In this document: positions 10,015 through 61,495 of the stretch, piece by piece | How positions within the stretch are numbered: position 1 is the stretch's first letter | Layout of the letters: each line of letters opens with the position of its first letter | Origin: Eledone cirrhosa | Lineage: Eukaryota | Length of the DNA stretch: 64,000 nt | Direction of reading: 5' to 3' | Assembly (NCBI GenBank): GCA_964016885.1 | Contig: OZ024743.1 | Span: 359,476,001 to 359,540,000 of the forward strand | Program-made: the position numbers and the translations under genes | Notes under the pieces: model-generated | What the model was told of the DNA's origin: nothing | Databases searched by the model: none | Seen by the model: the letters and a program-made list of their open reading frames with translations, nothing else

Positions 10015-10243
10015 ATTATTATTATTATTATTATTGGCGACCTACGTAGTAAATCGTATCATCGTGAGCTCCGCAAAGGTTTGTTATTTCCGTTTGTTAA
10101 AAATTGTCATTTATGGAAAATTTTATTGTTAACTGTTTATAAGCGCACATACATTGTTTTCCGAAAAGGACACCCAAAAAGATTGGGGCCTTGTGCCCAA
10201 AATTTAAACTTTTATTATTATCAAAAAAATTTCTTTGAAAAAA

Positions 10244-12225
10244 ATGGCTAATTCACCTCTGCACGAAGCAGCTGAAAGCCTTCCTCACAAATTAACACCT
10301 CACACCGACACCACCATTGTAAATGTTACTACGTTTGCCAACACAAAAAAAATATAAGCAGTAGCAATATTTTAAATTTGTCTCAGGCAGACATTCATTT
10401 CCCGCCATTACCAATGACTGCAGGTGTTAAACCCTCCACCACCACCACCACCGCGACAACCACCACCACCACCACCGCGACAACAGAAACAAAAGAAGAA
10501 AAAAATAAATTAACTCGTGATGTCGAAATGAAATCAAGCAAAATGGACTCTTCCGCACCAAAGACGACTGACGTCACCACCACCACAACTGAAACTAAAA
10601 TTAATATTAACGATAGCAACAACAACAACAATGACATTATAAAACCGACCCTCAGTTTCGCCATCGTAGCAAAACAATTCGAAGCGTTCACGGTAACTCA
10701 AGAAGATTTAGAAAATGCCAAACAAATGGTAAAGAAAGATGGGTACAGGGTCAGCCTCACCCCCCCACCTAATAAAAGGGAGCATCGGCGCCTGTGCACC
10801 GTGTCGTATAGAACAATAAATGTAAAATCGCGCCGAGTGGAACGGGCATCCGAGTCCCAAATCCAAAAAGCTTTGGGACATGTGTGGGCAAGAAAAACCC
10901 ACATCAGACGTGGGCAAAAGTATGGAACCGTGGATGTGTTCTTTGAAACACCAGAGGAGGCTAGAGAACACTCCATGGCCCCATTAAAAAGTGACGACCT
11001 CACACTCGTCCCAAGCTATTGTGGCCAGAGACTCGTAAAGATCAGGGTGACCCACGTTCCACCGGCCATCGAAATTCCCTGGCTAATAGCGGCTGTCCTC
11101 GCCGGCATCGAAGCCAACACGAAAATAATAGCAGTAGCAAAAGAAAAGCAGGAAAACTGGTCCGGATCTGGGATGGAGCTCCTGATCCAAGCGGACCAAA
11201 AAAGCATTGAGGAGATCCCAGAGGTAATAGACCTCACTGACGGCAGCCACCTCACGGTAATTGTCGAGGGCAGAAGACCTAGGTGTGTCGTTTGTGGTGA
11301 AGGAACCCACCCAAGGGCTTTCTGCCCTCAGGCTAAAAGGTTGAGGCCACCTCTCCTACCCACCCCAGTGACACAACCATCAACACCACCAGTAGCAGAG
11401 ATGGCAGCAACAACTGTAGCAGAAACAACAGAAGCAACTATAACAGCAACAACCCCAGCAACATTAGCAAAACCAACACCACTACCACCACCAGCAAAAC
11501 CAACACCACCACCACCCAACGCTTCAGAACTAGCACCAGCGCCTACACCATCCACCACACCACAACCAAAACTAACGGCTGTGGAGGATTTTCCACTCCC
11601 CGGCCTATCACAACTGGAGACAGATTGTGACGACGAGGAGTGGGAAACGATATCCGGAAAAAAAAAAAGAAACCAAAAAAGAAAAAATTCTCTTCCTTCC
11701 CCCTCCAAAAACAAAATACAGAGGGAAACAAATAAACTAAGAAACAAAAAAGTTAGGACAGATATGCCACCATCCACACCAGCATCACCAACCCCATCAA
11801 CCCAAACACCAACACCATCACCATCATTATCCCCAGCACCACCATCACCTACACCACAAAAGTCACCAAAATGCGAAACAGAAACAAACCCACAACAAAC
11901 GCAAACAAAACAAAACAACCAAAACGAAACACACTACACAGCATTACATTTGAACAACAAGCAATTATTACACTACATCCAACACAACACCAGCATCACA
12001 GAAAAAGACTACACAACAACCCCAAAATTCACACCACCTCCACACATACAAATCACTCGCATCACACAGAAAACGTACATGACACTAAAACAAAAATTCC
12101 CCAAAGACATCGGAGACTTCCGACAAGCACTCTCCAGGAGGATTTATAAGGACATCCTTCCTGAGGAGGCCACAAGCAGTGAAAAGGATGGAAAAGCCGT
12201 CCTTCCCCTACGAGAAGTAAGGTAA
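10244..12225 (+). pseudogene. Tx1-A ORF1 (gag-like, CCHC knuckle, Pro/Thr-rich), one frameshift in the A-run near 10350
   Basis: Start MANSPLHE as in copy 2; CVVCGEGTHPRAFC = CX2CX4HX4C. Confidence 0.85.
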
Positions 12226-12259
12226 GTGGTCTTTCCCATCTTTTCCACTCCTTTTCAAC

Positions 12260-15200
12260 ATGACCTCACTCAGAATAGGCAGCATAAATGCGCGTGGCTT
12301 GGGGTCGTCATGGAAGCAGGGCCACCTGCTCAACGACCTCAGGTCACTAAACATAGATGTAGTGGCCATCAGCGAGACCAGAATCGTCGAAGCACAATGC
12401 TTTCGCACCGATCTTCGGCGGCTACGATGTGTACGCATCTCCCAGCCGTCCGGGATCGGGGGAAGGAGTTGCTGTGCTTTTTCGGAGAGGTTTGGATCTT
12501 GCCATACGGGCCATCTTCCTGGACCCAGAAGGTAAGTTGGTGGTGCTGGACGTGACCAGCGGAGACGGGCAAGCTTTCAGGTTAGTGGCCGTCTATGCCC
12601 CGACAGGAGCAGGGCGGCCTGATTTCTTCCGGCGTCTGGAGACCTTTCTTGGAACGTCCCGCTCTTTAGTGTTAGTGGGCGACTGGAACAGGATCTTAGA
12701 TGCACGCTGGGATTGTGTGTGATTAGTGGATAGGGAAGGAGGGTGCAAGAGTCTCACCAACCTGCTCAGACGTTTTGAACTGTCTGACAGGTACCGAATG
12801 GATTTCCCGAATGTACCAATGTGGACTTGGACAAATCGTATAGGGTCATCAAGATCATATCTAGATAGAGTATTTTGTAGGGAAATAGATAGGTCTAGCA
12901 TAGGCTGTCCACAATTCAAGATAGTCAGCTACACGGACCACAAATTCGTGATCTGTGTGCTTGACTTAGATAGGCTTCATAGACGAGGACCCGGCTACTG
13001 GAAGTTAAACGCGTCCTTACCAGCGCGCAAGGCCTACAGAGACCGGATTAGCGAACTAGTTAAGCGGGCGTTGACGGGGGCCATCGTCAACAACAAGTGG
13101 TGGTTTGCTCTGAAAAGAGCAATTAGAATAGAGTCCATTAGGTTTAGTAAGACTTTAGCAATAGAGAAAAATAGAGCAGAGGGAGAATTAGTTAGAAAAT
13201 TAGATGAGGCGCTTAGCAAAGGCATCGCGACCGACGTACTTGCGGCGAAATTGGCCCTTGACCAATTCTTCAATGCAAAGCACGAAGGCTGCGTTGTCAG
13301 AGCTAGGGTGCGTGCTCTCAGACACGAGGGGACGAAAGCCGTTCAATGGGCCCGAGTGGCGGAGGCGCGTCGTGGCAACAAAGCCACGATCCGGTCTTTG
13401 GTGGACCACGACGGGCGCATGCTACTCGATCCCGGGCAAATGTGTGAAGCTTTTCAGCGACACTTCGCTCAACTGTTCGGGGGCAGTGGCGGGCCGGATC
13501 GAGGGATGGACTTTAGTGTCTACCTCGACGGACTGCCGCGGCTTTCGGCCACTGAGGCGGAGTGTTGCGAAAAGCCGATAACAACCGCTGAAGTACGGGA
13601 TGCAATGATTAGTTGCACAAGGGGTAAATCGCCTGGTTTGGATGGTCTGCCCTATGAACTTTACGTACAAATGCCAAACTTGTTCGGAGGCCTCTTGGCG
13701 GACGTCTACTGCAACTGGCAACAGAACGGGAGAATTCCCAGCTCTGTGAGCCGAGGAGCGGTGGCGCTGCTGAGAAAGGATCCGAACAAGGGGGATAACA
13801 TAGATAATTTTAGGCCCATAACTCTGCTAAACACAGAGTTCAAGATTTTGGCCAAGGTGCTAGCAAAGAGGTTGGCGCTTGTCGTTGGTGGCCTGGTGGG
13901 AGAGGCACAGACATGCGCCATTCCCGACAGATCCATCCACGACAACCTCCACCTCATGCGATACATCGTAGAGAGGGTAGCTAGGGAACCTGGCACGGGT
14001 GGGTCTTTGATCAATTTAGATCAGTCGAAAGCCTTCGATAGGGTCGACCATCGTTACCTAACGGCAGTCCTGAGGGCGGCTGGCTTTGCGCCCGTCTTCA
14101 GAGGCTGGATCGCTGCCATGCACAGCGACATCTGCTCTGTAGTGAGAGTGAACGGTCACCTTTCGGAACCGTTCAACATCATGCGCTCGGTCCGCCAAGG
14201 ATGTCCCCTCTCGTCCCTATTGTACGTATTGACTCTCGAGCCATTACTGCACAAACTGGAGACGTTGAGGGGGGTCCCGCGCGAACTAGGATGCGGAAGA
14301 TCCGTGTCAGCATATGCCGACGATGTCACCGTAGTGGTGTCGAACGCCAAACACATCGAGGCGATCGGCACTACACTAAGAGAATACGAAGCGGTGACAG
14401 GAGCAATGATCAACCAGGAAAAGTCAGTGGGCCTGCAGCTCGGCACCTGGAGAGGCAGGTCCATGCCGTCCAACAGCGTCGTCGGGCGCTGGACGGACGG
14501 ACCGGTTAAATTGCTAGGGGTCTGGTTCGGTCCAGACCTCCAGACGGACAAAAACTGGGACGAGGTGACGAGCAGGGTGGCTTCTCTCACCCAGAAATGG
14601 GCCGAGAGGAAGCTATCCCTGAAAGGTCGAGCGGAGGTGGCGAATGCGTACATCGCATCCGTCATCTACTACCGCCTGACCGTCGTACCTTGTCCTAAGC
14701 CCCGCCTGACTGCGCTGGAGCGTTTGCTCTTTCGCTTCTTGTGGAAGGGACGCGCTCCGATGGTCAGGCGGTCCATCTGCTGTCAACACCCGCTACGTGG
14801 AGGGCTGGGCATGCCGTGGCTGATGATGCGCAGACACGCGCTCAGGCTACGACATCTCCACCTCTTCCTCGACGGTGATCAGGTGTGGTCGCCGTTTGCA
14901 AGACGCGTTTTTCCCCAGCTCGTCTCCTTGACGGAGCTGCAGTCCTGGGTCAAGCGAAGACCAAGAGGGAGCGCTTGGAGACTGGAATGTCTTCAGGCGC
15001 TCACAGCCCTCGACCAATCGGGCAATGTGATCGGTGGAAACTCCACCTTGGCGTTCTATAGGGGATTAGTGGAGGGGAAGAGCGACGACGCACTTGGAGA
15101 AACTCTAGGCGTCGACGAAAATCAACTAGCCAATCTCTTCGGAAGGACTTTCGGGCCGGGGCCTATGGACAACTTCCAGAAATCCCTGGCCTGGCAGTGC

Positions 15201-15680
15201 TACCGAGGAGCTTTGCCAGTTCGGGATAAACTCTACAGGCATGGAGGTGCCGTCAGCCGGGCATGTCCGAGATGCGCGCAGGGCGACGAAACCGTCCTGC
15301 ACGCACTCGTCCAGTGTCCGAGCATTGCTGACTTGTGGGTTTATGTCGAACACCTGCTGTCACGTGTAGGACGGATCCAGCTATCAGCTGAGTCCATCGT
15401 GAGGATTGCCCCGCCCCCTTCCTTTAGCCTGGAAGGGCAGGCAGTTTTTATCTGTCTGGTGGCCATGGCGAAAGAGATAGTATGGTGGACACGTTTGAAA
15501 GGGCTGAAGACGAGCACTTACCTCTTCGGCGATGCCCTGATTAACTTTTTCAAATTTCATTTGAAAAGGAAAATCAGGGTAGAGAGGGAAGTGCTCTCTT
15601 CCCAGCATTTTGTTGAAAGATGGGTGAGAGAAGCAAGTATGGCCCGAATGAATGGGCCTTCTCTGAGTATGTGTCTGTAA
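12260..15680 (+). pseudogene. Tx1-A ORF2 (APE endonuclease, reverse transcriptase, C-terminal zinc finger), two frameshifts near 12395 and 12720
   Basis: SINARG, ISET, VYAP, GDWN, YLDR, TDH, WKLN, KSPGLDG, QGCPLS, AYADD, CPRC..ETVLHALVQC. Confidence 0.92.
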
Positions 15681-15922
15681 ATTAAAGGTGGAAAACTGGG
15701 AGAGGGCACTTGCCCTGGTGGTCAGGGCCACTGTGGTCTTTTAATGGGCTTTCTCCACAAATGTCCCTTGGAAGTCTGCCCCCTATTGGGGAATTTTTCT
15801 TTGTTATTTTATTTCAACCTCTGTTTTTTTACACGCAGAAATGCCCATTTGTACCGTCCTGTATTGTCCTGTACTGTCCTTAATGTCTACTTTATGTGAA
15901 CCCTTGTGGTTAATAAAGAAAA

Positions 15923-15985
<63 letters not shown>

Positions 15986-17277: not shown

Positions 17278-20200
17278 AATGCCATGGATGACGGAGGCCC
17301 GGCTCTGTAAGGTATAGTAATTTTTAACCGTTATAACAATTGTAAATTGTTTAAAACTTGAACCAAATTGTAGATAAAGACACCCTCCTCCTCGTGATGG
17401 GTCTTTCTGCCCGTTATTTGGCCCTTCGCGGTTAAATAACCGTTTATTGGGGTTTTGTGCCCAATATTCATTTTAAACCGTAAAAAAAAACATGGCTACA
17501 AAAAAGAATGTTCACAAGTCACTCCCACTGCTTCCGTCTTCTTCCTCAATCGTCATTACCTCAGAGAAAAGATTGTCTCTCTCCATTCCTTCTCTAAATG
17601 TGGTGTCGCCTCTTTCGCAAGCGACGCCATTAAAGAAAAAGAAAAATGTAGTTTCTCGTACTTTTCTTCATCAAGAGAACGCGCATACCGTGGAACATTT
17701 CTCCACGACGACGACAACGACGTAAGACGTGTGCGGTAAATACGGAAAGCCATTTCATTCGTCTGACGTCATGAAGAATAACAGCAGCAGCAGCAACAGT
17801 GGCGAGGAAAATATTAGTAGCAGCCGCAACAACATCAGCAGCAGCATAAACAACAACAACAACAGCAGCAGCAGCAGCAGCAACAACAACAACCACAGCA
17901 ACAGCGGCGGCGGCGGTCGTAGTACCAGCAGCAACAACAAAAGTAACAGCAGCTCTGACGACAACAACAACAACAACAACAACAACAAGAAAGAAAAACC
18001 AATCTCGTCTGTAGGTATCACAAAGAACCTGGAAACCATCCTTATAACAAATGAGGAATTACAGGAAGCAAAGAAGATGGTGACGAAAACCGGACACCGA
18101 GCAATCTGCAAAGCAGCCGAATAATTTTTCGAAACCAAACAGTACTGTACGGTCACGTACCGTACAGTAAGCACAAAATCACGTAGGGTTGAAAGAGCCA
18201 CAGAGGCTCAAATACAAAAAGCCTTAGAGTCTGTGCGGAAAACGCATATCACCCGAGGCAAGAAATATGCTACCGTGGACGTGATTTTTGCCACACCCCA
18301 GGAGGCAAAGGCTCAATCCTTAGTGACCCTAAGGAGCGAGGAAATGGTGTTGGTGCCCTCCTACTGCGGGCAAAAAATTGTGAGGGTCAAACAGAGTCAA
18401 TTCCCCCCCCCCCCCCCAGGGATGGCCTCTTCTTGGCTGGCCGCGTCTGTTCTCGTCGGAATCGAGGACAAAACAACCGTACTGCAAGTACAGAAAAAAG
18501 TACGAGAAGATTGGGTCGGCGCCTCCATTGAGATGTTAATTCAAACCAACCAGGAGTGCATCGAAGCTATCCCGGATGTGATAGACTTCGATAACGGCAC
18601 TCAACTTCCCATAAGTGTTGAGGACAAACGCCCGAAATGCTTTCGCTGTGGGTGGAAGACTCACCTCAGGGCCTTCTGCAATGAGAAGTCCCCGAGAAAT
18701 GAGAAAACCCCCCTCCTTCTGAAACCGGCTCCACTGCTAATAGCAACAGGACAGGTGGCAAGCAGGAAGGATAGGTCCGTGGCACCCATGCCCACGCCAC
18801 GGAAATCAAGAACAGCAGCAGCAGTGGAAGTATTAACAACAACAACAGTAATACCAACTGCAACTGAAACAGAGACTCCACTGCAACCATCACCAACGAG
18901 AACAAGTGAAAGAGTGGAGCTGGTACCCCTCCCCGACCTCACAGAATCGGACATGGAGTGTGTGATGGGAGAGGGATGGCAAAAGGTCGCAAGAAGGCAC
19001 AAACGCAGAAGCAGCGCATCGTTGCCTTCGAAAATGGAGGGAAGAAATGAAAAAAGGGTAAAGGCTACTGGAAAGAGACTTACAGCAGCAACACCACCAA
19101 CACCATCACCACCCACACTAGCACTACCATCACCACCGGCGGCAACCCCACTGCCAACAACAACAACACCTTCAACACCACCACCACAAGCACCATCATC
19201 GCAAACACAACAACAAAACACACACACCCAGCAACAACGAGAAGAAAATAGCAGAACCACACCTCACCTCCAGAAAAAGAAATGCACAGCAATAAATACA
19301 GACAAGAAACTAATGACTTACATAATTGAACACACAGACATTTCAAATCACGACTACATAATACCAGCACCAATCAAAACACCAACGAACATAAGACTGG
19401 TAAGAATATCACAGAAACAATACACAGACATTAAAAATGAAATTCCCCAACGCAGTTGGTGATTTCATAGACCTAGACCCAGAAGGTAAGTTGGTGGTGC
19501 TTTCAGGCTAGTAGCCGTCTATGCCCCGACAGATACAGGACGGCCAGATTTCTTTAGACGTCTAGAGACCTTTCTTGGAACGTCCCGCTCTTTAGTGTTA
19601 GTGGGCGACTGGAACGGTATCCTGGATGCACGCTGGGATAATGTGGGGCTAGTGGATAGGGAAGGAGGGTGCAAGAGCCTCACTAACCTGCTCAGACGTT
19701 CTGAACTGTCTGACAGGTATCGACTGGATCACCCGAATGTGCCAATGTAGACATGGACAAACCGCATCGGGTCATCCAGATCGTATCTCGATAGGGTATT
19801 CTGCAGAGAACTAGATAAGGCTAGTATAAGTTGTCCACAATTTAATATAGTTGACTACACAGACCATAAATTTGTGATCTGTGAGATCGACATAGACAGA
19901 ATCCATAGACAAGGGCCCCCTTACTGGAAGCTGAACGCGTTTTTCCCGGCGCGCAAAGCCTACAGGGATCGGATTAGCGTAGTAGTTAAGCGGGCGTTGA
20001 CGGGAGCGGTCGTCAACAACAGGTGGTGGTTCTCCCTGAAAAGGGCAATTAAAGTAGAGTCGATTAGGTTTAGAAAATGACTAGTGATAGAGGAAAATAG
20101 AGTAGAGGGAGAGCTAGTCAGAAAGCTAGAAGAGGCGTTTAGGACATGCATCGCAACTGACGTGCTTGCGGCGAGATTGGCACTCGACCAATTTTTCAAC

Positions 20201-22819
20201 GCAAAACACGAAGGCTGCGTTGTCAGAGCTAGAGCGCGTGCTCTGAAACACGAGGGGACAAAAGCCGTCCAATGGGCCCGGGTGACAGAGGCGCGACGTG
20301 GAAACAAACCCACAATTCGGTCTTTGTCTAATCAAAACGGGCGTGTGTTGCTTGAACCCGAGCAGATGTGTGAAGCTTTTCAGCATCACTTTGCTGAACT
20401 GTTCGGGAGCAGCGGCGGGCCGGATCGGTGTATGGACTTCAGTGCATACCTCGATGGACTGCCTCGGCTCTCGACGACCGCAGCACAGTGTTGCAAAAAG
20501 CCAATAACAGCCAGTGAAATACGGGAAGCGATGGCTAGCTGCACGAGGGGTAATTCGCCAGGTTTGGATAGTCTGCCCTACGAGCTTTATGCATTTATGC
20601 CAGACTTGTTCCGGCAGCAGAACGGGAGCATTCCTAGTTTTGTGAGCCGGGGAGCGGTGGGGATGCTGAGAAACGACCCGATCAAGGGGGATGTTATCGA
20701 TAACTTCAGGCCCATAACCCTGTTAAACGCAGAGTTCAAGATTTTGGCCAAGGTGTTAGCAACGAGGTTTGCGCTTGTCCCCAAGGGTCTGTGGGAGAGG
20801 TACAGACATGCGCCATTCCGGACAGATCCATACACGACAACTTCTACCTCATGCGATACATCATAGAGAGGGTGGTTAAGGAACCTGGCACGGGTGGGAC
20901 CCTGATCAACTTGGATCAATCCAAAGCATTCAAATAGGGCCGACCATCGGTACCTGGCGGTGTTTCTCGAGGCAGTCGGTTTTGGGCCCGTTTTCAGGGG
21001 TTGGATCCCTGCGATGTACAGCGACATCTGCTCAGTTGTGAGGGTGAACGGTCACCTGTCGCAGCCGATCAGCATCATGCACTCGGTCCCCCAGGGTTGT
21101 CCCCTCTCGTCCATCGTGTACGTATTGGTTCTCAAGCCGTTACTGCACCTACTGGGGGCGATGAGGGGCGTCCCACGCGAACTAGGATGCGGGAAATCCG
21201 AGTCGGCTTGCGCGGACGACATCACCGTCGCGATGTCGAGCACCAGACCGGTCCAGATGCTCGGCACCGCTCTCAAGGAATACGAAGCGGTGACAGGAGC
21301 AAAGATAAACCAGGAAAAGTCGGTGGGCTTGCAGCTCGGCACCTGGAGAGGCAAGTCCATGCCGTCCGACAGCGTCGTGGGGCGATGGACGGACGGACCG
21401 GTTAAATTTCTCGGGGTCTGGTTCGGACCGGACCTCCAGATGGAGAAAAACTGGAACGAGGTGACGAGCAAGGTGGCCTCCATCACCCAGAAATGGGCCG
21501 CGAGGAAGCTGTCCATGAAAGGACGAGCGGAAGTGGCGAATGCGTACATCGCATCCGTCATCTGCTACCGCCTCACCGTCGTCCCTTGGCCCGGCCCAAC
21601 TCTCACCAAAATGGAGCGCCTCCTCTTCCGCTTTTTGTGGAAGGGACGCGCTCCCATGGTCAGACGATCCATCTGCTGTCAACACCCGTTGTGTGGAGGA
21701 CTGGGCATGCCATGGCTGATGATGCGCAAACATGCGCTGAGGCTGCGACATCTCTGGTGCTTCCTTGACGGTGAACAGGTGTGGTCGCCGTTCGCCAGGC
21801 ACGTTTTCCCACAGCTCGTCTCCTTGGCGGAGCTGCAGTCCTGGGTCAGGAAAAGACCGAGGGATAGCGCTTGGAAACTGGAATGTTTCCACCTCGGCGT
21901 TCTATAGAGGACTAGTAGAAGGGAAGAGCGACGACGTTCTCGGAGAGTTCCTGGGCGTCGAAGAAGATCAGCTGTTTGCTCTCTTCCGGAGAACTTTCAG
22001 CCCAGGGCCTATGGATAACTTCCCAAAATCCCTGGCCTGGCAGTGCTACCGGGGAGCGTTGCCGGTTCGAGATAAGCTCTACAGGCACGGAAGTGCCGTC
22101 AGCCGAGACTGTCCGAGATGCGCGCAGAGCGACGAAACCGTCGTGCACGCACTCGTTTAGTACCCGAGCATTGCTGACTTGTGGAGCTATGTCAAACAGT
22201 TGCTGTCGCGTGGAGGACTGACCGGTTATCGACTGAGTCCATTGTGCAGATGGTCTCACCGTCTTCCTCCGAGGAGGAAGGGCCGCGGTTTTCATCTGCC
22301 TGGTGGCCATTGCGAAAGGGACTGTGTGGTGGACAAGGTTGAAAGGGTTAAAGACAGATACTTTCCTCTTCGGCGAATCCCTAATTAACTTTTTCAAGTT
22401 TCAGTTGAAGAGGAAAATCAGGGTGGCGAGGCAAGTGCTGCCTTCTAGCAAGTTTGTTGAAAGGTGGGTGAATGTAGCGAGAATGGTCCGAGTGAACGGG
22501 ACCGCTCTGAATATACGCCTGTAGTTTGAGAAATGGAAACAATTGAGAGAGGGCACTTGCCCTGGTGGTCAGGGGGCCGTGGTCTTTTGTGTGGTTTTCG
22601 CCACGAGTAACCCTCGGAGTTTTCCCCCCTATTGGGGAATTTTTCATTGTTTGAATTTTCATTTTTATTGTTTATATATATATATATGTTTCTATGTCTT
22701 TTTTTTCTTTTCTATATAAATAATAAACATCTTTACACGCACAAAACACACATCGTACCGTCCTGTGCCGTCTGTAATGTTTTTTCTTGATGTCAACCCT
22801 AGTGGCCAATAAAGAAATC
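17278..22819 (+). mobile_element. Tx1-clade LINE Tx1-B, diverged and degenerate (stops, frameshifts, ORF1/APE junction deleted near 19470)
   Basis: ORF1 knuckle CFRCGWKTHLRAFC; ORF2 fragments highly similar to Tx1-A; ends aataaagaaatc then (ATT)n. Confidence 0.9.
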
Positions 22820-22832: not shown

Positions 22833-22883
22833 TACCAGTAATGCACTGGGATAATTGCTGGCCTTGTGCCAAAAGTAGAAACA
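22833..22883 (+). mobile_element. 5'-truncated SINE 3' fragment inside an (ATT)n array
   Basis: taccagtaatgcactgggataattgctggccttgtgccaaaagtagaaac with ATT on both sides. Confidence 0.85.
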
Positions 22884-25050: not shown

Positions 25051-25098
25051 CATGTGCGTTTTCTTCCCTATATTATTATTATTATTATTATTACAGCT

Positions 25099-25116
25099 TT
25101 AAAAAATAAAGAAAAC
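25099..25116 (+). mobile_element. extremely 5'-truncated Tx1-A insertion (18 bp) with an 18-bp TSD
   Basis: Insert ends aataaagaaaac (the Tx1-A 3' end); attattattattacagct is duplicated at 25081-25098 and 25117-25134. Confidence 0.8.
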
Positions 25117-25130
25117 ATTATTATTATTAC

Positions 25131-28100
25131 AGCTGCATTTATCTTGCTTTATGTTCATACGAGTTATCACCAATTCACAACCAGTGACCTCAAGAGACAA
25201 GGTCCGCCATGTTCAAGAAAGAACATACATACACACACATGCATCTTTAGGTGTTTAGACTTGTGATGTACTTATATTGACAGAATCTTCCTTAGTATAT
25301 GGGCAGTTCCCCTTAGTACTATCTTTTGTATTTCTCCTATACGCGGGTTTCCCGGGATTTGCGATAAGTAATCATTAGACCACTTAGGTATCATTCCTAG
25401 AGCGCCTACAACCACTGGTATTGTTTTAGTTCTCAATTTCCACATTTTTCCAATTTCTATCTCCAGGTCCTTATAGTTGCTCAATTTTTCAAATGTTTTT
25501 ATAGATACATTCTTGTCTATTGGAACGGACATATCAATTAGCAGGCATACCCTCTTTTTAAAGTCCTTTAATATTATATCAGGTCTATTTGCATCTATTT
25601 TTCGGTCTGTTTGGATGCTAAAGTTCCACAAGATTGAGATGTGATCTTTTTCAAGTATGGGAGGTGGTTGATGCTCCCACCAATTCTTTTGATGGGGCAG
25701 GTCAAAATGCTTACACATTACCCAATGTATGTATTGTGCAGCTCTGTCATGCCTGTTTAGGTATTCGGTTGGAGCTATAGGACTGCACATTGAAATTATA
25801 TGGTCAATGGTCTCTGGTTGTTTTTTGCAACACGGCATAATGGGCTGCATCCATTTTTTATTATGTTGGCTTGGTAATTTTTTTGTTGGCAGACACTGAT
25901 CTTGTGCTGATATAATCAGTCCTTCAGTCTCCGATTTCAGTCCAGAGGATGCCAACCACTGATGGGTTAAAGTGAAATTTGTAGTCCATTACTGTATCTT
26001 TGTGAATCTTTTGTAATGGAATATGATCTTTTGATGCTTTCGTGTTTCAAAACGAGTTTGATCATCCAATCATGTGATTCCCTTAGATATGTAGATAATC
26101 CAATTGTTGCACTTTTCAACGCAATTTCTAACTGGACTAACCCACGTCTTCCTTCTTTCCTAGGGAGATATATTCTATCTATATCTGCCTTAGGGTGATG
26201 CATTCTGTGCATGGTTAAGAATTTTCTAATTTTTGTATCGAGCCTACGGATCTCTGTGCTTGACCAGTTGATGACATTGTAACTGTAGGTTACTACTGGT
26301 ATGGCAAGCGTGTTTATGGCATCGATCCTATTCCTTGCATTCAATTCCGTTCTTAAGATTGCTCTTACTCTGCGGTAACATTCCTTCCTTATCCTTTCCC
26401 TCATTGTCGAGTGCTTGATTCCGTCTCCTTCACAAACACCTAGATATTTGTAATTTTTTCTTGATCAAGTTCTCTTATCACGTTCCCCCGATCAAGATTA
26501 ATGTCTGAACTCTTCAGCAGCTTTCCTCTGGTGAACGTTGCTTTGGCGCATTTATCCAGTCCAAACTCCATTTTAATGTCATCACTGAACTGCTTCACAG
26601 TGGATAATAGCCCTTGCAATTGTTCATCATTTTTTGCAAATAGTTTCAGGTCATTCATGTAGAACAAGTGATTAATGGTTTTGTCATAGACTCTATATCC
26701 ATGTTTTGTTTCATTGAGCATTTTACTTAATGGTATAAGTGCGATGCAGAATAAAAGCGGTGATAAAGATTCACCATGAAAAATTCCACAATTAATATTA
26801 ACTTCTCCAGCTTCCAGTGATTTTGTTTCACTATTCAAAAGGAGTGTCGTTTTCCATGTCTTCATACTGAATGACAAAAACCTCCTGACAACGGGGGATA
26901 TTTTGAAAATCTCTAAACATTTTTCAATCCAACTGTGTGGCAAACTATCGAATGCTTTTTTATAATCTATCCAAGCAATCGATAGATTTTTGTGTCTATT
27001 ATGACAATCTTCCAGTATCATTTTGTTAACCAAAAGCTGATCCTTACAGCCATATGAACCTCGTTTACACCCTTTCTGCTTAATGGGAAATAGGTCATTT
27101 GTTATCAGGTGGTCATATGTGTATTCAGTTAGGACTGATGTTAAAATTTTATACATTGTGGTCAAGCAAGTTATCGGTCTGTAATTTTTGGGTTTGTTTG
27201 TCTCATCATTCTTCGGAAGCAGGAATGTAATGCCGTTAACTAGCCATGATGGTATCTTTTCTGGCTCCTTAACTATTTCATTGTAAAGTTGGGCTAACAG
27301 CTCATGAGACTCTGTGAAGGCATTTATCCAAACATTTTGTATTTTGTCTTTTCCTGGGGATTTCCATTTGCTGGTTTTTCTTAGAGCCAAGCGCAACTGT
27401 TCAACTGTTATGTTTTCCCATATTTGTTCCTCAAGATGAGCTGTATCTTTCATTTGTCTGTCTATCCATGGGGCATGTATGTTATGAACTTTTTCTTCGG
27501 CCCAGATCTTTTCCCAGAATTCTTGCACTTCCTCCTTGGGTGGTATTGATTTAGCAGTTATTGTTGACTTACCAATTTTTCTGTAGAAGTTTCTTTGGTT
27601 GTTTTTGCACATATTATTTGTCCTTATAGAATCTAGATCGTTTTTCAAAGCCCCTTATACGAGCAGCTTTGGCCGACACTTTTTGCTTGATTATTTCTAT
27701 CAGCATGTATATGTCACTTGTTGATTTTATACTATACTTTCTTTTCAATTTTCTAAGTTTATTTTGTTTAACATGTTCACCTACTTTATAGTTTGTTAAA
27801 ATTTCTATGTCAGATCGGAGAAGGTTTATTTGGCGATTGGTGTTCTCTTGCCAAGTAGATTTCTTGTGGGAATTACTTTGTTTTTTCATCTTCACTCCAC
27901 ATAAGTGAGTGGTGACTTTAGCCGATGCATAATAGAGATGATTTAAATCAGTAATGTTTAGTTTGTTTGTGATGATAATGTTTTTGACCCGGGTGACGGC
28001 CGATCCGGTATGAGGTTTTATCATTAGACATTTACTTTATTTTGTCGGGTTTTATCCTTATCCGCCAAGGGGTAATCATTTCGTGTTACCACTTCTAGAA

Positions 28101-28195: not shown

Positions 28196-28424
28196 ATTAT
28201 TATTATTATTATTATTGGCGACCTACGTAGTAAATCGTATCATCGTGAGCTCCGCAAAGGTTTGTTATTTCCGTTTGTTAAAAATTGCCATTTATGGAAA
28301 ATTTTATTGTTAACTGTTTATAAGCACACATACATTGTTTTCCGAAAAGGACACCCCAAAAGATTGGGGCCTTGTGCCCAAAATTTTAACTTTTATTATT
28401 ATCCAAAAATTTCTTTGAAAAAAA

Positions 28425-30413
28425 ATGGCTAATTCCCCTCTGCACGAAGCAGCTGAAAGCCTTCCTCACAAAATAACACCTCACACCGACACCACCATTG
28501 TAAATGTTACTACGTTTGCCAACACAAAAAAAAATATAAGCAGTAGCAATATTTTAAATTTGTCTCAGGCAGACATTCATTTCCCGCCATTACCAATGAC
28601 TGCAGGTGTTAAAGCCTCCACCACCACCACCACCGCGACAACCACCACCCCCACCACCACCGCGACAACAGAAACAAAAGAAGAAAATAATAAATTAACT
28701 CGTGATGTCGAAATGAAATCAAGCAAAATGGACTCTTCCGCACCAAAGACGAATGACGTCACCACCACCACAACTGAAACAAAAATTAAGATGAACACAA
28801 ATAACGATAGCAACAACAACAACAATGACATTATAAAACCGACCCTCAGTTTCGCCATCGTAGCAAAACAATTCGAAGCGTTCACGGTAACTGAAGAAGA
28901 TTTAGAAAATGCCAAACAAATGGTAAAGAAAGATGGGTACAGGGTCAGCCTCACCCCCCACCTAATAAAATGGAGCATCGGCGCCTGTGCACCGTGTCGT
29001 ATAGAACAATAAATGTAAAATCGCGCCGAGTGGAACGGGCATCCGAGTCCCAAATCCAAAAAGCTTTGGGACATGTGTGGGCAAGAAAAACCCACATCAG
29101 ACGTGGGCAAAAGTATGGAACCGTGGATGTGTTCTTTGAAACACCAGAGGAGGCTAGAGAACACTCCATGGCCCCATTAAAAAGTGACGACCTCACACTC
29201 GTCCCAAGCTATTGTGACCAGAGACTCGTAAAGATCAGGGTGACCCACGTTCCACCGGCCATCGAAATTCCATGGCTAATAGCGGCTGTCCTCGCCGGCA
29301 TCGAAGTCAACACGAGAATAATAGCAGTAGCAAAAGAAAAGCAGGAAAACTGGTCCGGATCTGGGATGGAGCTCCTGATCCAAGCGGACCAAAAAAGCAT
29401 TGAGGAGATCCCAGAGGTAATAGACCTCACTGACGGCAGCCACCTCACGGTAATTGTCGAGGGCAGAAGACCTAGGTGTGTCGTTTGTGGTGAAGGAACC
29501 CACCTAAGGGCTTTCTGCCCTCAGGCTAAAAGGTTGAGGCCACCTCTCCTACCCACCCCAGTGACACAACCATCAACACCACCAGTAGCAGAGATGGCAG
29601 CAACAACTGTAGCAGCAACAACAGAAGCAACTATAACAGCAACAACCCCAGCAACAGTAGCAAAACCGACACCACTACCACCACCAGCAAAACCAACACC
29701 ACCACCACCCAACGCTTCAGAACTAGCACCAGCGCCTACACCATCCACCACACCACAACCAAAACTAACGGCTGTGGAGGATTTTCCACTCCCCGGCCTA
29801 TCACAACTGGAGACAGATTGTGACGACGAGGAGTGGGAAACGATATCCGGAAAAAAAAAAAGAAACCAAAAAAGAAAAAATTCTCTTCCTTCTCCCTCCA
29901 AAAACACAGAGGGAAACAAATAAACTAAGAAACAAAAAAGTTAGGACAGATATGCCACCATCCACACCAGCATCACCAACCCCATCAACCCAAACACCAA
30001 CACCATCACCATCATTATCCCCAGCACCACCATCACCTACACCACAAAAGTCACCAAAATGCGAAACAGAAACAAACCCACAACAAACGCAAACAAAACA
30101 AAACAACCAAAACGATACACACTACACAGCATTAAATTTGAATAACAAGCAATTATTACACTACATCGAACACAACACCAGCATCACAGAAAAAGACTAC
30201 ACAACAACCCCAAAATTCACACCACCTCCACACATACAAATCACTCGCATCACACAGAAAACGTACATGACACTAAAACAAAAATTCCCAAAAGACATCG
30301 GAGACTTCCGACAAGCACTCTCCAGGAGGATTTATAGGGACATCCTTCCTGAGGAGGCCACAAGCAGTGAAAAGGATGGAAAAGCCGTCCTTCCCCTACG
30401 AGAAGTAAGGTAA
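28425..30413 (+). pseudogene. Tx1-A ORF1 with two frameshifts (~28958, ~29903)
   Basis: Three overlapping ORFs reconstruct the copy-1 protein; CVVCGEGTHLRAFC. Confidence 0.85.
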
Positions 30414-30447
30414 GTGGTCTTTCCCATCTTTTCCACTCCTTTTCAAC

Positions 30448-33400
30448 ATGACCTCACTCAGAATAGGCAGCATAAATGCGCGTGGCTTGGGGTCGTCATG
30501 GAAGCAGGGTCACCTGCTCAACGACCTCAGGTCACTAAACATAGATGTAGTGGCCATCAGCGAGACCAGAATCTCCGAAGCACAGGCTTTCGCACCGATC
30601 TTCGGCGGCTACGATGTGTACGCATCTCCCAGCCGTCCGGGATCGGGGGGAGGAGTTGCTGTGCTTTTTCGGAGAGGTTTGGATCTTGCCATACGGGCCA
30701 TCTTCCTGGACCCAGAAGGTAAGTTGGTGGTGCTGGACGTGACCAGCGGAGACGGGCAAGCTTTCAGGTTAGTGGCCGTCTATGCCCCGACAGGAGCAGG
30801 GCGGCCTGATTTCTTCCGGCGTCTGGAGACCTTTCTTGGAACGTCCCGCTCTTTAGTGTTAGTGGGCGACTGGAACGGGATCTTAGATGCACGCTGGGAT
30901 TGTATGGCATTAGTGGATAGGGAAGGAGGGTGCAAGAGTCTCACCAACCTGCTCAGACGTTTTGAACTGTCTGACAGGTACCGAATGGATTTCCCGAATG
31001 TACCAATGTGGACTTGGACAAATCGCATAGGGTCATCAAGATCATATCTAGATAGAGTATTTTGTAGGGAAATAGATAGGTCTAGCATAGGCTGTCCACA
31101 ATTCAAGATAGTCAGCTACACGGACCACAAATTCGTGATCTGTGTGCTTGACTTAGATAGGCTTCATAGACGAGGACCCGGCTACTGGAAGCTAAACGCG
31201 TCCTTACCAGCGCGCAAGGCCTACAGAGACCGGATTAGCGAACTAGTTAAGCGGGCGTTGACGGGGGCCATCGTCAACAACAAGTGGTGGTTTGCTCTGA
31301 AAAGAGCAATTAGAATAGAGTCCATTAGGTTTAGTAAGACTTTAGCAATAGAGAAAAATAGAGCAGAGGGAGAATTAGTTAGAAAATTAGATGAGGCGCT
31401 TAGCAAAGGCATCGCGACCGACGTACTTGCGGCAAAATTGGCCCTTGACCAATTCTTCAATGCAAAGCACGAAGGCTGCGTTGTCAGAGCTAGGGTGCAT
31501 GCTCTCAGACACGAGGGGACGAAAGCCGTTCAATGGGCCCGAGTGGCGGAGGCGCGTCGTGGCAACAAAGCCACGATCTGGTCTTTGGTGGACCACGACG
31601 GGCGCATGCTACTCGATCCCGGGCAAATGTGTGAAGCTTTTCAGCGACACTTCGCTCAACTGTTCGGGGGCAGTGGCGGGCCGGATCGAGGGATGGACTT
31701 TAGTGTCTACCTCGACGGACTGCCGCTGCTTTCGGCCACTGAGGCGGAGTGTTGCGAAAAGCCGATAACAACCGCTGAAGTACGGGATGCAATGACTAGT
31801 TGCACAAGGGGTAAATCGCCTGGTTTGGATGGTCTGCCCTATGAACTTTACGTACAAATGCCAAACTTGTTCGGAGGCCTCTTGGCGGACGTCTACTGCA
31901 ACTGGCAACAGAACGGGAGAATTCCCAGCTCTGTGAGCCGAGGAGCGGTGGCGCTGCTGAGAAAGGATCCGAACAAGGGGGATAACATAGATAATTTTAG
32001 GCCCATAACTCTGCTAAACACAGAGTTCAAGATTTTGGCCAAGGTGCTAGCAAAGAGGTTGGCGCTTGTCGTTGGTGGTCTGGTGGGAGAGGCACAGACA
32101 TGCGCCATTCCCGACAGATCCATCCACGACAACCTCCACCTCATGCGATACATCGTAGAGAGGGTAGCTAGGGAACCTGGCACGGGTGGGTCTTTGATCA
32201 ATTTAGATCAGTCGAAAGCCTTCGATAGGGTCGACCATCGTTACCTAGCGGCAGTCCTGAGGGCGGCTGGCTTTGGGCCCGTCTTCAGAGGCTGGATCGC
32301 TGCCATGCACAGCGACATCTGCTCTGTAGTGAGAGTGAACGGTCACCTTTCGGAACCGTTCAACATCATGCGCTCGGTCCGCCAAGGATGTACCCTCTCG
32401 TTCCTATTGTACGTATTGACTCTCGAGCCATTACTGCACAAACTGGAGACGTTGAGGGGGGTCCCGCGCGAACTAGGATGCGGAAGATCCGTGTCAGCAT
32501 ATGCCGACGATGTCACCGTAGTGGTGTCGAACGCCAAACACATCGAGGCGATCGGCACTACACTAAGAGAATACGAAGCGGTGACAGGAGCAATGATCAA
32601 CCAGGAAAAGTCAGTGGGCCTGCAGCTCGGCACCTGGAGAGGCAGGTCCATGCCGTCCAACAGCGTCGTCGGGCGCTGGACGGACGGACCGGTTAAATTG
32701 CTAGGGGTCTGGTTCGGTCCAGACCTCCAGACGGACAAAAACTGGGACGAGGTGACGAGCAGGGTGGCTTCTCTCACCCAGAAATGGGCCGAGAGGAAGC
32801 TATCCCTGAAAGGTCGAGCGGAGGTGGCGAATGCGTACATCGCATCCGTCATCTACTACCGCCTGACCGTCGTACCTTGTCCTAAGCCCCGCCTGACTGC
32901 GCTGGAGCGTTTGCTCTTTCGCTTCTTGTGGAAGGGACGCGCTCCGATGGTCAGGCGGTCCATCTGCTGTCAACACCCGCTACGTGGAGGGCTGGGCATG
33001 CCGTGGCTGATGATGCGCAGACACGCGCTCAGGCTACGACATCTCCACCTCTTCCTCGACGGTGATCAGGTGTGGTCGCCGTTTGCAAGACGCGTTTTTC
33101 CCCAGCTCGTCTCCTTGACGGAGCTGCAGTCCTGGGTCAAGCGAAGACCGAGAGGGAGCGCTTGGAGACTGGAATGTCTTCAGGCGCTCACAGCCCTCGA
33201 CCAATCGGGCAATGTGATCGGTGGAAACTCCACCTTGGCGTTCTATAGGGGATTAGTGGAGGGGAAGAGCGACGACGTACTTGGAGAAACTCTAGGCGTC
33301 GACGAAAATCAACTAGCCAATCTCTTCGGAAGGACTTTCGGGCCGGGGCCTATGGACAACTTCCAGAAATCCCTGGCCTGACAGTGCTACCGAGGAGCTT

Positions 33401-33867
33401 TGCCAGTTCGGGATAAACTCTACAGGCATGGAGGTGCCGTCAGTCGGGCATGTCCGAGATGCGCGCAGGGCGACGAAACCGTCCTGCACGCACTCGTCCA
33501 ATGTCCGAGCATTGCTGACTTGTGGGTTTATGTCGAACACCTGCTGTCACGTGTAGGACGGATCCAGCTATCAGCTGAGTCCATCGTGAGGATTGCCCCG
33601 CCCCCTTCCTTTAGCCTGGAAGGGCAGGCAGTTTTTATCTGTCTGGTGGCCATGGCGAAAGAGATAGTATGGTGGACACGTTTGAAAGGGCTGAAGACGA
33701 GCACTTACCTCTTCGGTGATGCCCTGATTAACTTTTTCAAATTTCATTTGAAAAGGAAAATCAGGGTAGAGAGGGAAGTGCTCTCTTCCCAGCATTTTGT
33801 TGAAAGATGGGTGAGAGAAGCAAGTATGGCCCGAATGAATGGGCCTTCTCTGAGTATGTGTCTGTAA
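30448..33867 (+). pseudogene. Tx1-A ORF2, open for 977 aa (APE+RT), then a premature TGA at 33379-33381 before the zinc finger
   Basis: Copy 1 has TGG at the equivalent codon; the frame continues to 33867. Confidence 0.92.
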
Positions 33868-34109
33868 ATTAAAGGTGGAAAACTGGGAGAGGGCACTTGC
33901 CCTGGTGGTCAGGGCCACTGTGGTCTTTTAATGGGCTTTCTCCACAAATGTCCCTTGGAAGTCTCCCCCCTATTGGGGAATTTTTCTTTGTTATTTTATT
34001 TCAACCTCTGTTTTTTTACACGCAGAAATGCCCATTTGTACCGTCCTGTATTGTCCTGTACTGTCCTTAATGTCTACTTTATGTAAACCCTTGTGGTTAA
34101 TAAAGAAAA

Positions 34110-34160
<51 letters not shown>

Positions 34161-34305: not shown

Positions 34306-36095
34306 ATGATTTGAAACTTTCTTTGACACCCAAATGATTCCACAAGGGCGGAAACAACAGTAAATGTCCTTGTAAAGGACATGGGCAGTACCAGCCAGCA
34401 CTATTTTCTGTATCTCTTGCAGCATTTGCTTTCCAGATATTCCAAATATTTTTAGTACCCGTTTTTGTCATTCCAAATGCGCAGACTATCACTGGCATTG
34501 TACAGGCCTTAACATGCCACCTTTTTTAATTTCAATTGATAGATATTTATACTTACTGAGCTTTCCGAACTCTTTCGAGGAGATGTTACAATCGGATGGA
34601 ATGTTCATGACAATTAAGAAACATGTTTTCTCTTAATGGTCCTTCACAATTATATCAGGTCTGTTGGCCTTGATTGTTTTGTCAGTATTCACAGGGAAAT
34701 CCCAAAGGATTGCTGTGTTCTTGTATCCTGTTACTGCATCTAGGTGATAGCTGTAACATTTCCCTCCGTTTCCAGATCATAAAACCTGCACATTAACCAG
34801 TATAAGTATTACCCCACTCTATCATGGTTCGTTTTATATGTCTAGAGAGCTAATACCTTGCAGCCTGAAACCAGGTGGTCAATGGTCTCAACATGCTCAT
34901 CACAAAATCGATACTTTTGGTCAGTTCCTTTTTTGATCACATTGGTTTGAAAGTTGCGCGTTGGGAAACACTGGTCTTGTGCAGCCAAAATGACGCATTC
35001 ACCCTCTGCCTCTAGCCAAGAACTCCGCAGCCACTGATGGGTGAGAATGGTGGCTTTAATTGCATAATTGCCATTATTATTTTTAATGGCAGTATCGGTA
35101 GAGGGTCGGACGCCATGTTTCCAGCATAGTTACGTCCCTTTACAATCTGAGTTCAAATCCCGCCGAGGTTGACTTTGCCTTTCATCCTTACGGGGTCGAT
35201 AAAATAAAGTACCAGTAATGCACTGGATAATTGCTGGCCTTGTGCCTAAAGTAGAAACAATTATTTTTAAACCGTATTCCCACTTCTTCCGCAAACTTCC
35301 TACTTTTCTTTGTGACTGAACGTAATCTTTTCCTCCCTTCGTGAACTGCGACCCTTTCCATCATCCAGGCATCTATGGTTTTAAGGTACTGAGTCCATGT
35401 ATGAAAGCTCTAGCTGGATCATTCCTCTATTTTGTCTAGGAAGATAGAGGCAATTGACATCTACTGCTAGGTGATGCATTTTATTACAGGTAAAAAGTTT
35501 CCTGATTTTGGTGTTCATTCTCTTAATTTCGTCAACGTTCAAATTCACAATATCGAAACTGAAGGTGACAATAGGGATTGCAAGCTCATTCATGACAGAT
35601 AATTTATTTCTATAGTTAAACTCCGTTTTCATGACTGCACATACACTCCGGTAGCATTCCTTCTTGATTCTTTTTTTCATGCCGGCGTGGTGAATACTTT
35701 GAATTTCATTGATCCCTAGATATCTGTAGGCTTGATCTTCGTTCCCTAATTACTGTATTCACATCTGTTTCCATTAAGTTAGTTCTTGTCATTCTGCCTT
35801 TCTTGAATGTTGCTTTGGCACATTTTTCATCATCGACGAACACCTTAACTGTCTTCAGCAGTCCCTCCAATTCGTTGTCGTTTTTAGCATACAACTAAAA
35901 GTCATCCATATAAAACAGGTGATTTATATTTTGTAGTCATATTTTGTTTTGGCGAGTGCTAAAGACAGCGGTGGGAGTGCAATGTAGAATATCAGAGGAG
36001 AAAACGTATCACCCTGAAAAATAGCACAGTTAATACACATGCTGCTGGAATTTATAATTCCATCACTGTGTGACAATGATAGGTTTGCATTTCAT
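34306..36095 (-). mobile_element. old R4/Dong-like LINE (Dong-C), degenerate
   Basis: KECYRSVCAVMKTE..NKL, YAKNDNELEGLLKTVK, EKCAKATF; GIFQGD-like and RPDI-like motifs in broken frames. Confidence 0.8.
35087..35259 (+). mobile_element. tRNA-type SINE inserted in Dong-C, 11-bp TSD attatttttaa
   Basis: A box tggcagtatcgg, B box gagttcaaatcc; TSD at 35076-35086 and 35260-35270. Confidence 0.9.
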
Positions 36096-36325: not shown

Positions 36326-36750
36326 CTAAAAATGTTTTTTACATTCGTTTTGAGAATATTTTGTTTCATGTCGAATGATATTCATGAGTTTATATTTCTC
36401 GTTTGGTGTGGTGAGATTTTGAATTTCCTTAACATTAACGCGTTTCTGTTTGTAAAGTTCGTTAATGATTTTATATGTTATTCTTTTCATATTAATCGTT
36501 CAAGTGCGTTTTAGGCGTTCGGCTTGTTCTATGTTTAGAGGTAAATTATCTACTTGGTTTGTGATATTTGTCGTGTATATTTTGAAGGAAACAGTATTTT
36601 AAACACACATTTGTTCAGCTTGGCATAAGTTAGTGCCGAGACGGCGATGAATTTATTTTGCAGGGTTTTTAATATGAAATCGAGTGTTGAAACAAATATT
36701 GTTATATTTGGGAAGGGTCATATTGTTATAATATTGCCAGAAATAATAAT

Positions 36751-36933
36751 TGTTTCTACTTTTGGCACAAGGCCAGCAATTACCCAGTGCATTACTGGTA
36801 CCTTATTTTACCGACCCTGTAAGGACGAAAGGCAAAGTGAACCACGGCGGGATTTGAACTCAGACCGTAAAGGGACGTAACTATGCTGGAAAGCATGATG
36901 TCCGACTCTCTACCGATACTGCCAATCCACCGC
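36751..36933 (-). mobile_element. tRNA-type SINE, 14-bp TSD (attattatttctgg on the sense strand)
   Basis: ccagaaataataat at 36737-36750 and 36934-36947. Confidence 0.9.
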
Positions 36934-37232
36934 CCAGAAATAATAATAGAACACAGTCACTATTTGGTTTCGATTGGTTTTCTCTTCTGTAACGTTTATA
37001 TCTCCATAGTTAATTTATCTGGCAATCAATGTTTATCATTGATTGACCAACGGTTAAAAATACAGATATAAATATATATATATAGTCTATCAAAGTTCTT
37101 TTATCCCACACCTGTGACATCATCAGTGGTACTATTATGTTTCCCCCGTTGTATTGTAATGTCTACGCTATTTTTATTTGATTTATCTATTTATTCAGTG
37201 CTTGAATTTAATTGTATCAAAGTTTACCGTGA

Positions 37233-44633: not shown

Positions 44634-44634
<1 letters not shown>
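42661..44634 (-). mobile_element. RLE-E (R4/Dong-like) LINE, 5'-truncated, in (TATG)n
   Basis: FFVDDLKLY, EFGKDKC, DIDRLYL, AIQEQEI, CRLCRTNIEDITHVISSC, RHD; TATG arrays on both sides. Confidence 0.9.
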
Positions 44635-52213: not shown

Positions 52214-52397
52214 TTGTTTCTACTTTTGGCACAAGGCCAGCAATTACCCAGTAGATTACTGGTACTTTATTTTATCAACCCCGTAAGGATGAAAGGCAAA
52301 GTTAACCTCGGCGGGATTTGAACTCAGAATGGCAAGGGCCATAACTCTATACATCAAAGCATGGCGTCGGACCCTCTACCGATACTGCCAATTCACC
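52214..52397 (-). mobile_element. tRNA-type SINE (main family) in (AT)n
   Basis: Homologous to 36751-36933. Confidence 0.88.
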
Positions 52398-54930: not shown

Positions 54931-55812
54931 TGGATTCTTCCTCTATATCTCTTTCTCATTTCCTCTCTCTCACTTTCTATCTTTCTCTGGAAGAAATCTG
55001 CTGACTCAGACCTGGAGAAGGGTGGGCCAAGAAACGCCGTTTGTCAATATGGTGCCCCTACTCCTCTATCAAGAGTTACGGGACCATGCATACATATCAA
55101 ATAGGCAGTATTTTTCCGTCACTTAACCAGAAGTCGTGTATGTGTTGGTGTTACTAGTTGTTAACTGTAATCAAGCTGTTCTGTTCAATTTATTGTGATA
55201 GACTATATTGGTGATATCCCTGTGCCTTATATCACTTCCTTAGAGGGCCAGGACTATCTACGTGGTGAGAGCTCTTCGGCTACAAGCTGAATGATAGTTT
55301 GATGGTTACATAATCTAGGAAGCGATGATATTCGAACAAGAGTAGTTCACATTCAGATTATTGGTTTTAAAGAGGTTATGACATTTGTAGTTGGGAAAGG
55401 AGATCACAATACACACAATGTTACTGGCTTTTTGTCACGTTCGTGGATTGAACAAATTTATTTTTTCTTCTTTTTTTCTATATTCAGTAGTGGTTCTTAT
55501 TTCTATGTTAGTTGCTCAACAAAACCAAATCTTATACGTGCCTCGCAGTAATAGAGGTCGGCATACTTCAAATCGATTCTGTCAGAAAATACTTTGGAAA
55601 TTCTGTAATATCTTCTTATAGGTTTGGTCTGTAGGAAGGGATTGGCAGATGTTTTACAGGCTCTTCGACATCGGTGAGATCAGTGTAAAATTGTGATTCG
55701 AGTAGTTAAAAGTTGACGTCTGGGGGGAAAACATTAACTTACCAGTGATTTATTTATGTATATATCCACATTTATATATCATCTATCTATGTATTATTAA
55801 TATTTAATGTAA

Positions 55813-55992
55813 GGATTGGCAGTATCGATAGAGAGTCGGACACAATATTTTGAAGCATAGAGTTACGTCCCTTTACGATCTGAGTTCAAAACCCGCCGGG
55901 GTTAACTTTGCCTTTCATCGTTACGGGGTCGATCAAATAAAGTACCACTAATGTACTGGGTAATTGCTGGCCTTGTGCCAAATCTAGAAACA
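55813..55992 (+). mobile_element. tRNA-type SINE, 17-bp TSD attaatatttaatgtaa
   Basis: TSD at 55796-55812 and 55993-56009. Confidence 0.9.
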
Positions 55993-56175
55993 ATTAATAT
56001 TTAATGTAATGTTAAGACTAAAGCCATTATATGCCTTCATAATATAAAGTTAAGATGATACATGTGCGTTATAGCTATCGGGTTATGCTACTGATTGTGA
56101 TGCACCGTATATGAACTCATAAATGCAAATTCCTATAAATTCTAACATCAACGCCTAAGGAAAAGCATATAATTG

Positions 56176-61405: not shown

Positions 61406-61432
61406 TTGAAGTGATATGACTACACACCACGC

Positions 61433-61495
61433 GATAAAATAAAGTACCAGTAATGCACTGGGATAATTGCTGGCCTTGTGCCAAAAGTAGAAACA
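61433..61495 (+). mobile_element. SINE 3' fragment inside the Helitron 5' region
   Basis: gataaaataaagtaccag…gtagaaacaattatt. Confidence 0.85.

Follow-up and report, generated by a model that had tools for sequence, protein, structure and literature searches.

The window analysed here, a stretch of 64,000 nucleotides of Eledone cirrhosa DNA, carries a SINE at positions 35087–35259, and the question raised by this locus is which LINE provides the enzyme that copies it. SINEs recruit LINE machinery via the LINE tail (PMC3747384), and the initial annotation had proposed a partnership with Tx1-like LINEs combined with relaxed targeting of ATT. The element is short, non-coding and high in copy number, carries TSDs and occurs in 5'-truncated form, all as expected of a SINE. 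Judged from its sequence it is likely of the Pol III type: its B box fits the pattern used, while the A-box pattern is unmatched and a similar motif is visible by eye. Neither ARAGORN nor Rfam returned a tRNA match for the head of the element, and failure of tRNA models on diverged SINE heads is common. Furthermore, in a search for a MetaSINE or CORE-SINE domain, the SINE motifs found no match in the portions of the PMC4824008 and PMC4758252 supplements that were covered.

The window contains nested non-LTR retrotransposons, comprising two copies of one Tx1-like LINE family (Tx1-A), one copy of another (Tx1-B), several antisense R2-like elements and the SINE (Table 1). An intact 3' end is found in six SINE copies or fragments, and weaker matches occur besides. 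Both repeats of the TSDs of 11, 14 and 17 bp described at 35076, 36737 and 55796 are present in the sequence, and all three start with ATT on the sense strand, as the initial annotation had it; the SINE fragment at 22833 indeed lies inside an ATT array in Tx1 orientation. The annotation had also listed an 18-bp Tx1 TSD at 25081: this duplication is real, but its assignment to Tx1 depends on 12 nt of Tx1-A tail. The R2-like LINE at 25135–27985 is one that we take to be of the Dong/R4 type. Between 7650 and 34200, antisense Dong-like elements and Tx1 copies form a nested chain in which they share ATT/TAA arrays. Elsewhere in the window, R2-like elements occupy (ATGT)n arrays at 42540–51700, one 3' region being present three times with inverted copies at 160–1381; a broken Helitron Rep/Pif1 helicase gene lies on the minus strand at 57715–60885, and a perfect 171-bp inverted repeat with arms 1 nt apart at 2917–3259.

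Table 1. Positions in the window of the SINE copies, the Tx1-like LINEs and the associated R2-like element
Feature	Position	Strand	Remarks
SINE copy	35087..35259	+	About 10 nt of the 5' end missing relative to other copies; B box GTTCAAATC; A-box-like motif by eye only
TSD of this SINE copy, 11 bp	35076..35086 (5' repeat) = 35260..35270 (3' repeat)	+	3' repeat begins at the base after the element
Tx1-type tail of this SINE copy	35236..35259	+	Predicted 3-bp stem, CUUGU loop, 13-nt spacer
SINE copy, near full-length	36737..36947	-	TSD 14 bp: 36737-36750 = 36934-36947
SINE copy	55796..56009	+	TSD 17 bp: 55796-55812 = 55993-56009
SINE, 5'-truncated, 54-nt fragment	about 22833..22883	+	In ATT array between Tx1-B end (22819) and antisense Dong-like tail; Tx1-B orientation
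SINE copy	52215..52391	-	At TA run; TSD imperfect
SINE copy	5480..about 5656	-	Followed by ATT array and antisense Dong-like tail; no TSD found
SINE copy, 5'-truncated	61432..61495	+	TSD imperfect
Tx1-A copy 1, full-length	10036..15923	+	ORF1-like frame 10276-12225; ORF2 broken close to its beginning; flanked on either side by ATT arrays
Tx1-A copy 2, full-length	28217..34110	+	98.6% to copy 1; APE and RT in 30409-33381; stop ahead of zinc-binding part
Tx1-B, older copy	17923..22819 (5' boundary approximate)	+	About 80% to Tx1-A over ORF2
12-nt Tx1-A tail and 6 extra nt	25081..25134	+	Flanked by 18-bp TSD
R2-like LINE, presumably Dong/R4-type	25135..27985	-	(TAA)n tail supplies plus-strand ATT array

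The Tx1-like LINEs have the make-up of the L1/Tx1 group, with two ORFs and an ORF2 containing APE, RT and a C-terminal zinc-binding motif. In the uninterrupted copy L150, which holds APE, RT and zf-RVT and has a stop-free frame of 1204 residues at 6079-9690, the closest solved relative of the protein is human L1 ORF2 (E 2e-52; R2, E 1e-21), and the sole named match among 13 for the LINE protein is to Tx1 from a coral. The Tx1-like families form one clade (100/100) of an RT tree, within a 19-row group holding the named Tx1 protein (94/94), a grouping that cannot separate the Tx1 clade from the L1 clade, as the tree contained no L1 reference. Two branches appear in the tree, one for ATT (89/83) and one for ATCT/minisatellite (100/98). 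A target-sequence preference, a trait that distinguishes the Tx1 clade from the L1 clade, is displayed by Tx1-A: an ATT array of 17–125 nt lies on the 5' side of 20/20 full-length copies, and ATT follows the 3' end in all 19 whose end was seen. These arrays could partly have been carried on the RNA. Arrays also surround those truncated Tx1 copies whose TSD can be read. The TSDs measure about 12–22 bp in some 5'-truncated copies, a rough range given many uncertain 5' ends and lengths that are hardly readable inside arrays, and none was found in 20 of 33 rows. The ATCT sister branch (L094, L096, L103, L150, L162, L355–L371) has the same tail and resides in (ATCT)n arrays, often as head-to-tail stacks, and L165 and L170 of the Tx1-like group terminate in a minisatellite in which SINE copies are also inserted (L163).

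For a comparison of 3' ends, the last 30 nt of the SINE copies at 35076 and 36737 were scored, anchored at the 3' end, against 45-nt tails of LINEs. The set comprised 11 Tx1 and 9 other tails, leaving out Penelope-like elements and L331 and L338, presumably RNase H-like LINEs. Tx1 tails scored 9–26 against the 35076 copy and 7–26 against the 36737 copy, compared with −6 to 8 for the other LINEs in both cases, and overall none of the nine non-Tx1 tails, a sample of LINEs, matched the SINE better. The alignment with Tx1-A and Tx1-B described in the initial annotation has to be read at the level of the group: Tx1-A, the young family of the window, is among the weakest Tx1 matches (11 and 7), is surpassed by one CR1-like tail (8) in the case of the 36737 copy and is by itself marginal against shuffled sequences (p 0.046 and 0.072; Tx1-B 0.032 and 0.012). 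The 3' sequence shared by SINE and LINE is short and strongest across families, and the tail signal appears clear only for the Tx1 families taken together. ATCT-type Tx1 tails score 11–24, equal to or above the ATT type, so that the tail does not name the partner family. The top-scoring tail, L065, occurs once in the genome, for which reason part of its score reflects private mutation and L065 was rejected as a tail subfamily.

The feature that the SINE and Tx1 tails have in common is a predicted stem of 3–4 bp with a CUUGU loop, located 16 nt ahead of the target. The core aligns gap-free, with G-G-C, CUUGU, G-C-C in the SINE and G-C-C, CUUGU, G-G-C in Tx1, each followed by 13 nt to the target. 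At stem pair 2, Tx1 has C-G, whereas the SINE has G-C, a combination found in no Tx1 variant; pair 3 is either G-C or A-U among Tx1 families. The motif is missing in 8 of 108 ORF2 C-terminal matches. Of 49 distinct Tx1 tails, five have an altered loop and the rest represent 28 stem-loop variants, in which the stem pairs are formed in 25, 24, 22 and 15 cases. Changes on both sides of the stem occur in three of the four pairs, although the events are few (19 Tx1 and 3 SINE rows); the covariation score was reached by 0/500 shuffles and is 0.37, compared with at most 0.10 in slid controls. In the same rows 86% of cells pair, an inflated figure, since 9 of the 28 Tx1 variants, most with broken stems, had been left out. 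Each of the four tails that were folded is predicted to form the hairpin, and no stability above that of shuffled sequences was found for it (z −0.54 to 0.24). The same stem is carried by a longer relative of the SINE, several copies of which terminate in GAAATC or GAAACC in the manner of older Tx1 families. The LINE RNA carries AAUAAA 5–7 nt from its end, whereas the SINE is without AATAAA.

A match this short with a marginal folding energy may be regarded as chance or as a relic, in which case a Tx1-type or other enzyme would move the SINE without reading the hairpin. This is quite improbable in view of the identical spacing, the compensatory nature of the G-C pair and the conservation of the tail among Tx1 families that are 43–98% alike to Tx1-A in the ORF2 C-terminus.

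Insertion sites provide a second line of evidence. In 80 evenly spaced 10-kb stretches, 800 kb in total, of the 3.0-Gb genome, 112 matches to the approximately 185-nt SINE make up 1.9% of bases, and the 73 copies with a complete 3' end extrapolate to about 270,000 genomic copies. A TSD of at least 9 bp was found for 43 of these 73, compared with 30 of 359 mismatched-pair controls; 35 of these TSDs are not simple repeats, and 31 of the latter begin at the base after the element. When offset 0 alone was permitted, 39/73 copies and 26/718 controls gave a TSD, leaving 34/73 copies with none. The unique TSDs start with ATTAT in 27 of 31 cases and have TAT at +3 to +5 in all 31, and ATTAT directly follows 58/73 copies. 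Four SINE TSDs instead start with GTTAT or ACTAT, identically in both repeats, which indicates that the starting bases belong to the target and that the SINE end is precise. TSD length has a median of 16 bp and a range of 9–23 bp (n=34), which suits the range reported for the L1 clade (7–18 bp) better than that for RTE (7–15 bp) (PMC6007223). SINE copies lie 2.2–22.5% away from the majority sequence and Tx1-A copies are 97.3% alike, so that the ages of the two overlap.

The targets of the SINE are mostly single ATTAT sites, not arrays. An ATT run of at least 12 nt is present in only 2 of 34 SINE targets (5.3% of 4069 background sites), compared with the arrays flanking every full-length Tx1-A copy, and the relaxed targeting postulated at the outset is borne out by this difference. 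The SINE and Tx1 thus have an insertion footprint in common, consisting of the ATT start, the orientation and a similar TSD range, but differ strongly in stringency. SINE tandems were observed at L018:1958-2785, L151, L161 and L163, among them five partial copies arranged head to tail every 173 bp; at these loci the ATTAT behind an older copy is often the place where a new one has inserted.

A second abundant LINE of the genome, overlooked by the initial annotation, also ends in (ATT)n; from a motif in it we take its C-terminus to be CR1-like. With 31,103 first-look candidates and copies about 98.5% alike, this LINE might be thought to move the SINE, the ATT start of the TSDs then reflecting the pairing of tail and target, as in RTE-related elements, where the first TSD base follows the 3' repeat (PMC6007223). 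Its tail scores against the SINE, however, are −4 and 0, and 9 of 69 truncated rows gave a TSD call, with 0 at offset 0 (control 10/341), in a set that counts four elements twice and consists mostly of copies from similarity searches. Likewise, ATTA is present in the 5' flank of 13/69 rows, compared with 59/73 SINE copies and a background of 11.9%. The absence of SINE-like TSDs from this other ATT-tailed LINE, within the sample, does not refute the partnership proposed in the initial annotation; it contradicts the CR1-like LINE as the mobiliser, which is left with a very slight probability. Copies of this LINE (L101:1249-3492, L171–L230, L251–L300) contain frames some 957 residues long, carry an inverted repeat close to the end and show no TSDs, and their last ~115 nt are frequently duplicated.

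The Dong/R4-like elements share the microsatellite of the SINE as well: 18 of 48 Tx1-A 3' flanks adjoin an antisense Dong-like tail, and two SINE copies of the window run into such tails. That these elements move the SINE is nevertheless hardly credible, as they lie in the opposite orientation with a sense strand ending in (TAA)n, and the scores of their four tails against the SINE range from −6 to 1. Within this genome, a separate pair of the SINE-LINE type is exemplified by a (GAT)n-tailed LINE, about 55 nt of whose tail are shared by short elements. Found at L104:8724-9998 and many sample loci, this LINE has a PHD finger right behind the RT and almost no 3' UTR, and its last ~55 nt are common to several short element families; judging by its motifs, its C-terminus is presumably RTE-like, not CR1-like.

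The Tx1-like group is indicated as the partner of the SINE by tail match, orientation and both the length and the start of the TSDs, and at this level the sequence evidence supports the partnership. Within the group, another lineage, low in copy number or extinct and with relaxed ATTAT targeting, could be the actual partner, the array families merely sharing its tail ancestry. Such a lineage would fit the deviating pair 2 of the SINE stem, the absence of AATAAA from the SINE, its use of mostly single ATTAT sites and the position of Tx1-A among the weakest tail matches. Yet a search for the SINE stem combined with AATAAA gave 13 genomic matches, the 10 fetched being all SINE-type copies (a floor). 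A distant L1-like protein query gave matches at 36 places with 25–27% identity; of the 20 long-frame L1/Tx1 matches fetched, again a floor, 16 showed a tail, and all of these were of the Tx1 type (1 ATT, 14 ATCT-like, 1 TA). In addition, ATT runs of at least 9 nt are slightly more frequent in SINE targets (7/34) than in the background (8.7% of 4069 sites, p 0.027). A separate Tx1-group lineage is accordingly an unlikely partner.

The SINE, the last 24 nt of which match the tail common to the Tx1-like LINEs of this genome, is instead probably copied by the ATT-targeting Tx1 branch, whose ORF2 protein would read the hairpin and insert the element at single ATTAT sites. Target-primed reverse transcription is an established mechanism. 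The ORF2 protein would bind the short CUUGU hairpin in the SINE or LINE RNA and nick the bottom strand at ATTAT; reverse transcription would then begin 13 nt behind the stem, and a second nick would follow about 16 bp away. The ATT branch is put forward as the enzyme source because of its target. A LINE RNA with AAUAAA would carry several AUU units by read-through from the array, by which arrays would be favoured. The SINE, which has no polyadenylation signal, would offer merely a short AUUAU, and its use of single sites is proposed to result from this. Taken one step further, an animal Tx1/L1-group LINE may read a CUUGU hairpin and drive a SINE of about 270,000 copies, being array-specific itself while inserting the SINE at single ATTAT sites, if the length of the pairing between RNA and primer, and not the endonuclease alone, sets microsatellite specificity; this wider reading is tentative, with a little less than an even chance of being correct.

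Ohshima and Okada reportedly described the octopus SINEs OK, OR1 and OR2 in 1994 (cited in PMC4758252 and PMC4824008). These and the MetaSINEs are abundant tRNA-type SINEs in cephalopods, with which the present SINE was compared by description; the partner LINEs of MetaSINEs are given as unknown (PMC4824008). The repeat list of Octopus vulgaris, which the repeat make-up of the present genome resembles, contains L1-Tx1 and mostly unclassified SINEs that are not paired (PMC13282606). No octopod SINE-Tx1 pairing was found in the PMC and bioRxiv literature searched, and the part of PMC3812793 covered added nothing on Tx1.

Assignment of a SINE to Tx1 has a precedent in crocodilians, where SINEU was assigned to Tx1-Mar by shared target and 5' ends (Kojima 2015, PMC4494074). 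As here, the target preference is of variable strictness, being 13–23% in some SINE families and 90% in others. SINEU elements differ in having snRNA heads and poly(A) tails, and the 3' half of SINEU-1 matched no LINE (PMC4494074), whereas the present link consists of a shared predicted hairpin tail and a microsatellite target. Kibi, Koshi and the crocodilian (TTCC)n and (TTTC)n Tx1 families also insert into microsatellites, but the targets of the present LINEs are (ATT)n and (ATCT)n, and the covered sections of PMC4494074 name no SINE partner for those families. In the L1 clade, stringent pairs are formed by LINE1-1_ZM with ZmSINE2/3 in maize and by L1-1_CR with SINEX-3_CR in Chlamydomonas, and also occur in sorghum (PMC3747384). 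A short 3' hairpin with compensatory changes, as may also be present here, is common to LINE and SINE in maize and Chlamydomonas; these hairpin pairs are of plant or algal origin, however, and Table 1 of PMC3747384 contains no animal L1/Tx1 pair. Stringent recognition of a stem-loop tail, as proposed here, is also known for UnaSINE/UnaL2 and bivalve SINEs, with CR1/L2 partners (PMC3747384; PMC4824008), and the eel case was tested by experiment, while the present pair is proposed from sequence. No tail-sharing Tx1-SINE pair was found in the PMC and bioRxiv literature, a search short of Repbase Reports, Ohshima and Okada 1994, Akasaki 2010 and Kojima's 2018 SINE-body paper. Taken together, the proposed partnership between the Tx1 group and the SINE appears real and is well-supported by the sequence data.

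PMC3747384 treats as open whether RNA recognition in the ancestral L1 clade depended on poly(A) or on a specific tail, and an animal Tx1-group pair with a shared tail would be an extra test case. Here, a single LINE radiation combines one tail with different targets (ATT, ATCT and minisatellite) and with a SINE that is less strict, so that RNA recognition and target choice could be separable in tests. If the partnership is true, it would identify what drives a repeat accounting for about 2% of the DNA sampled.
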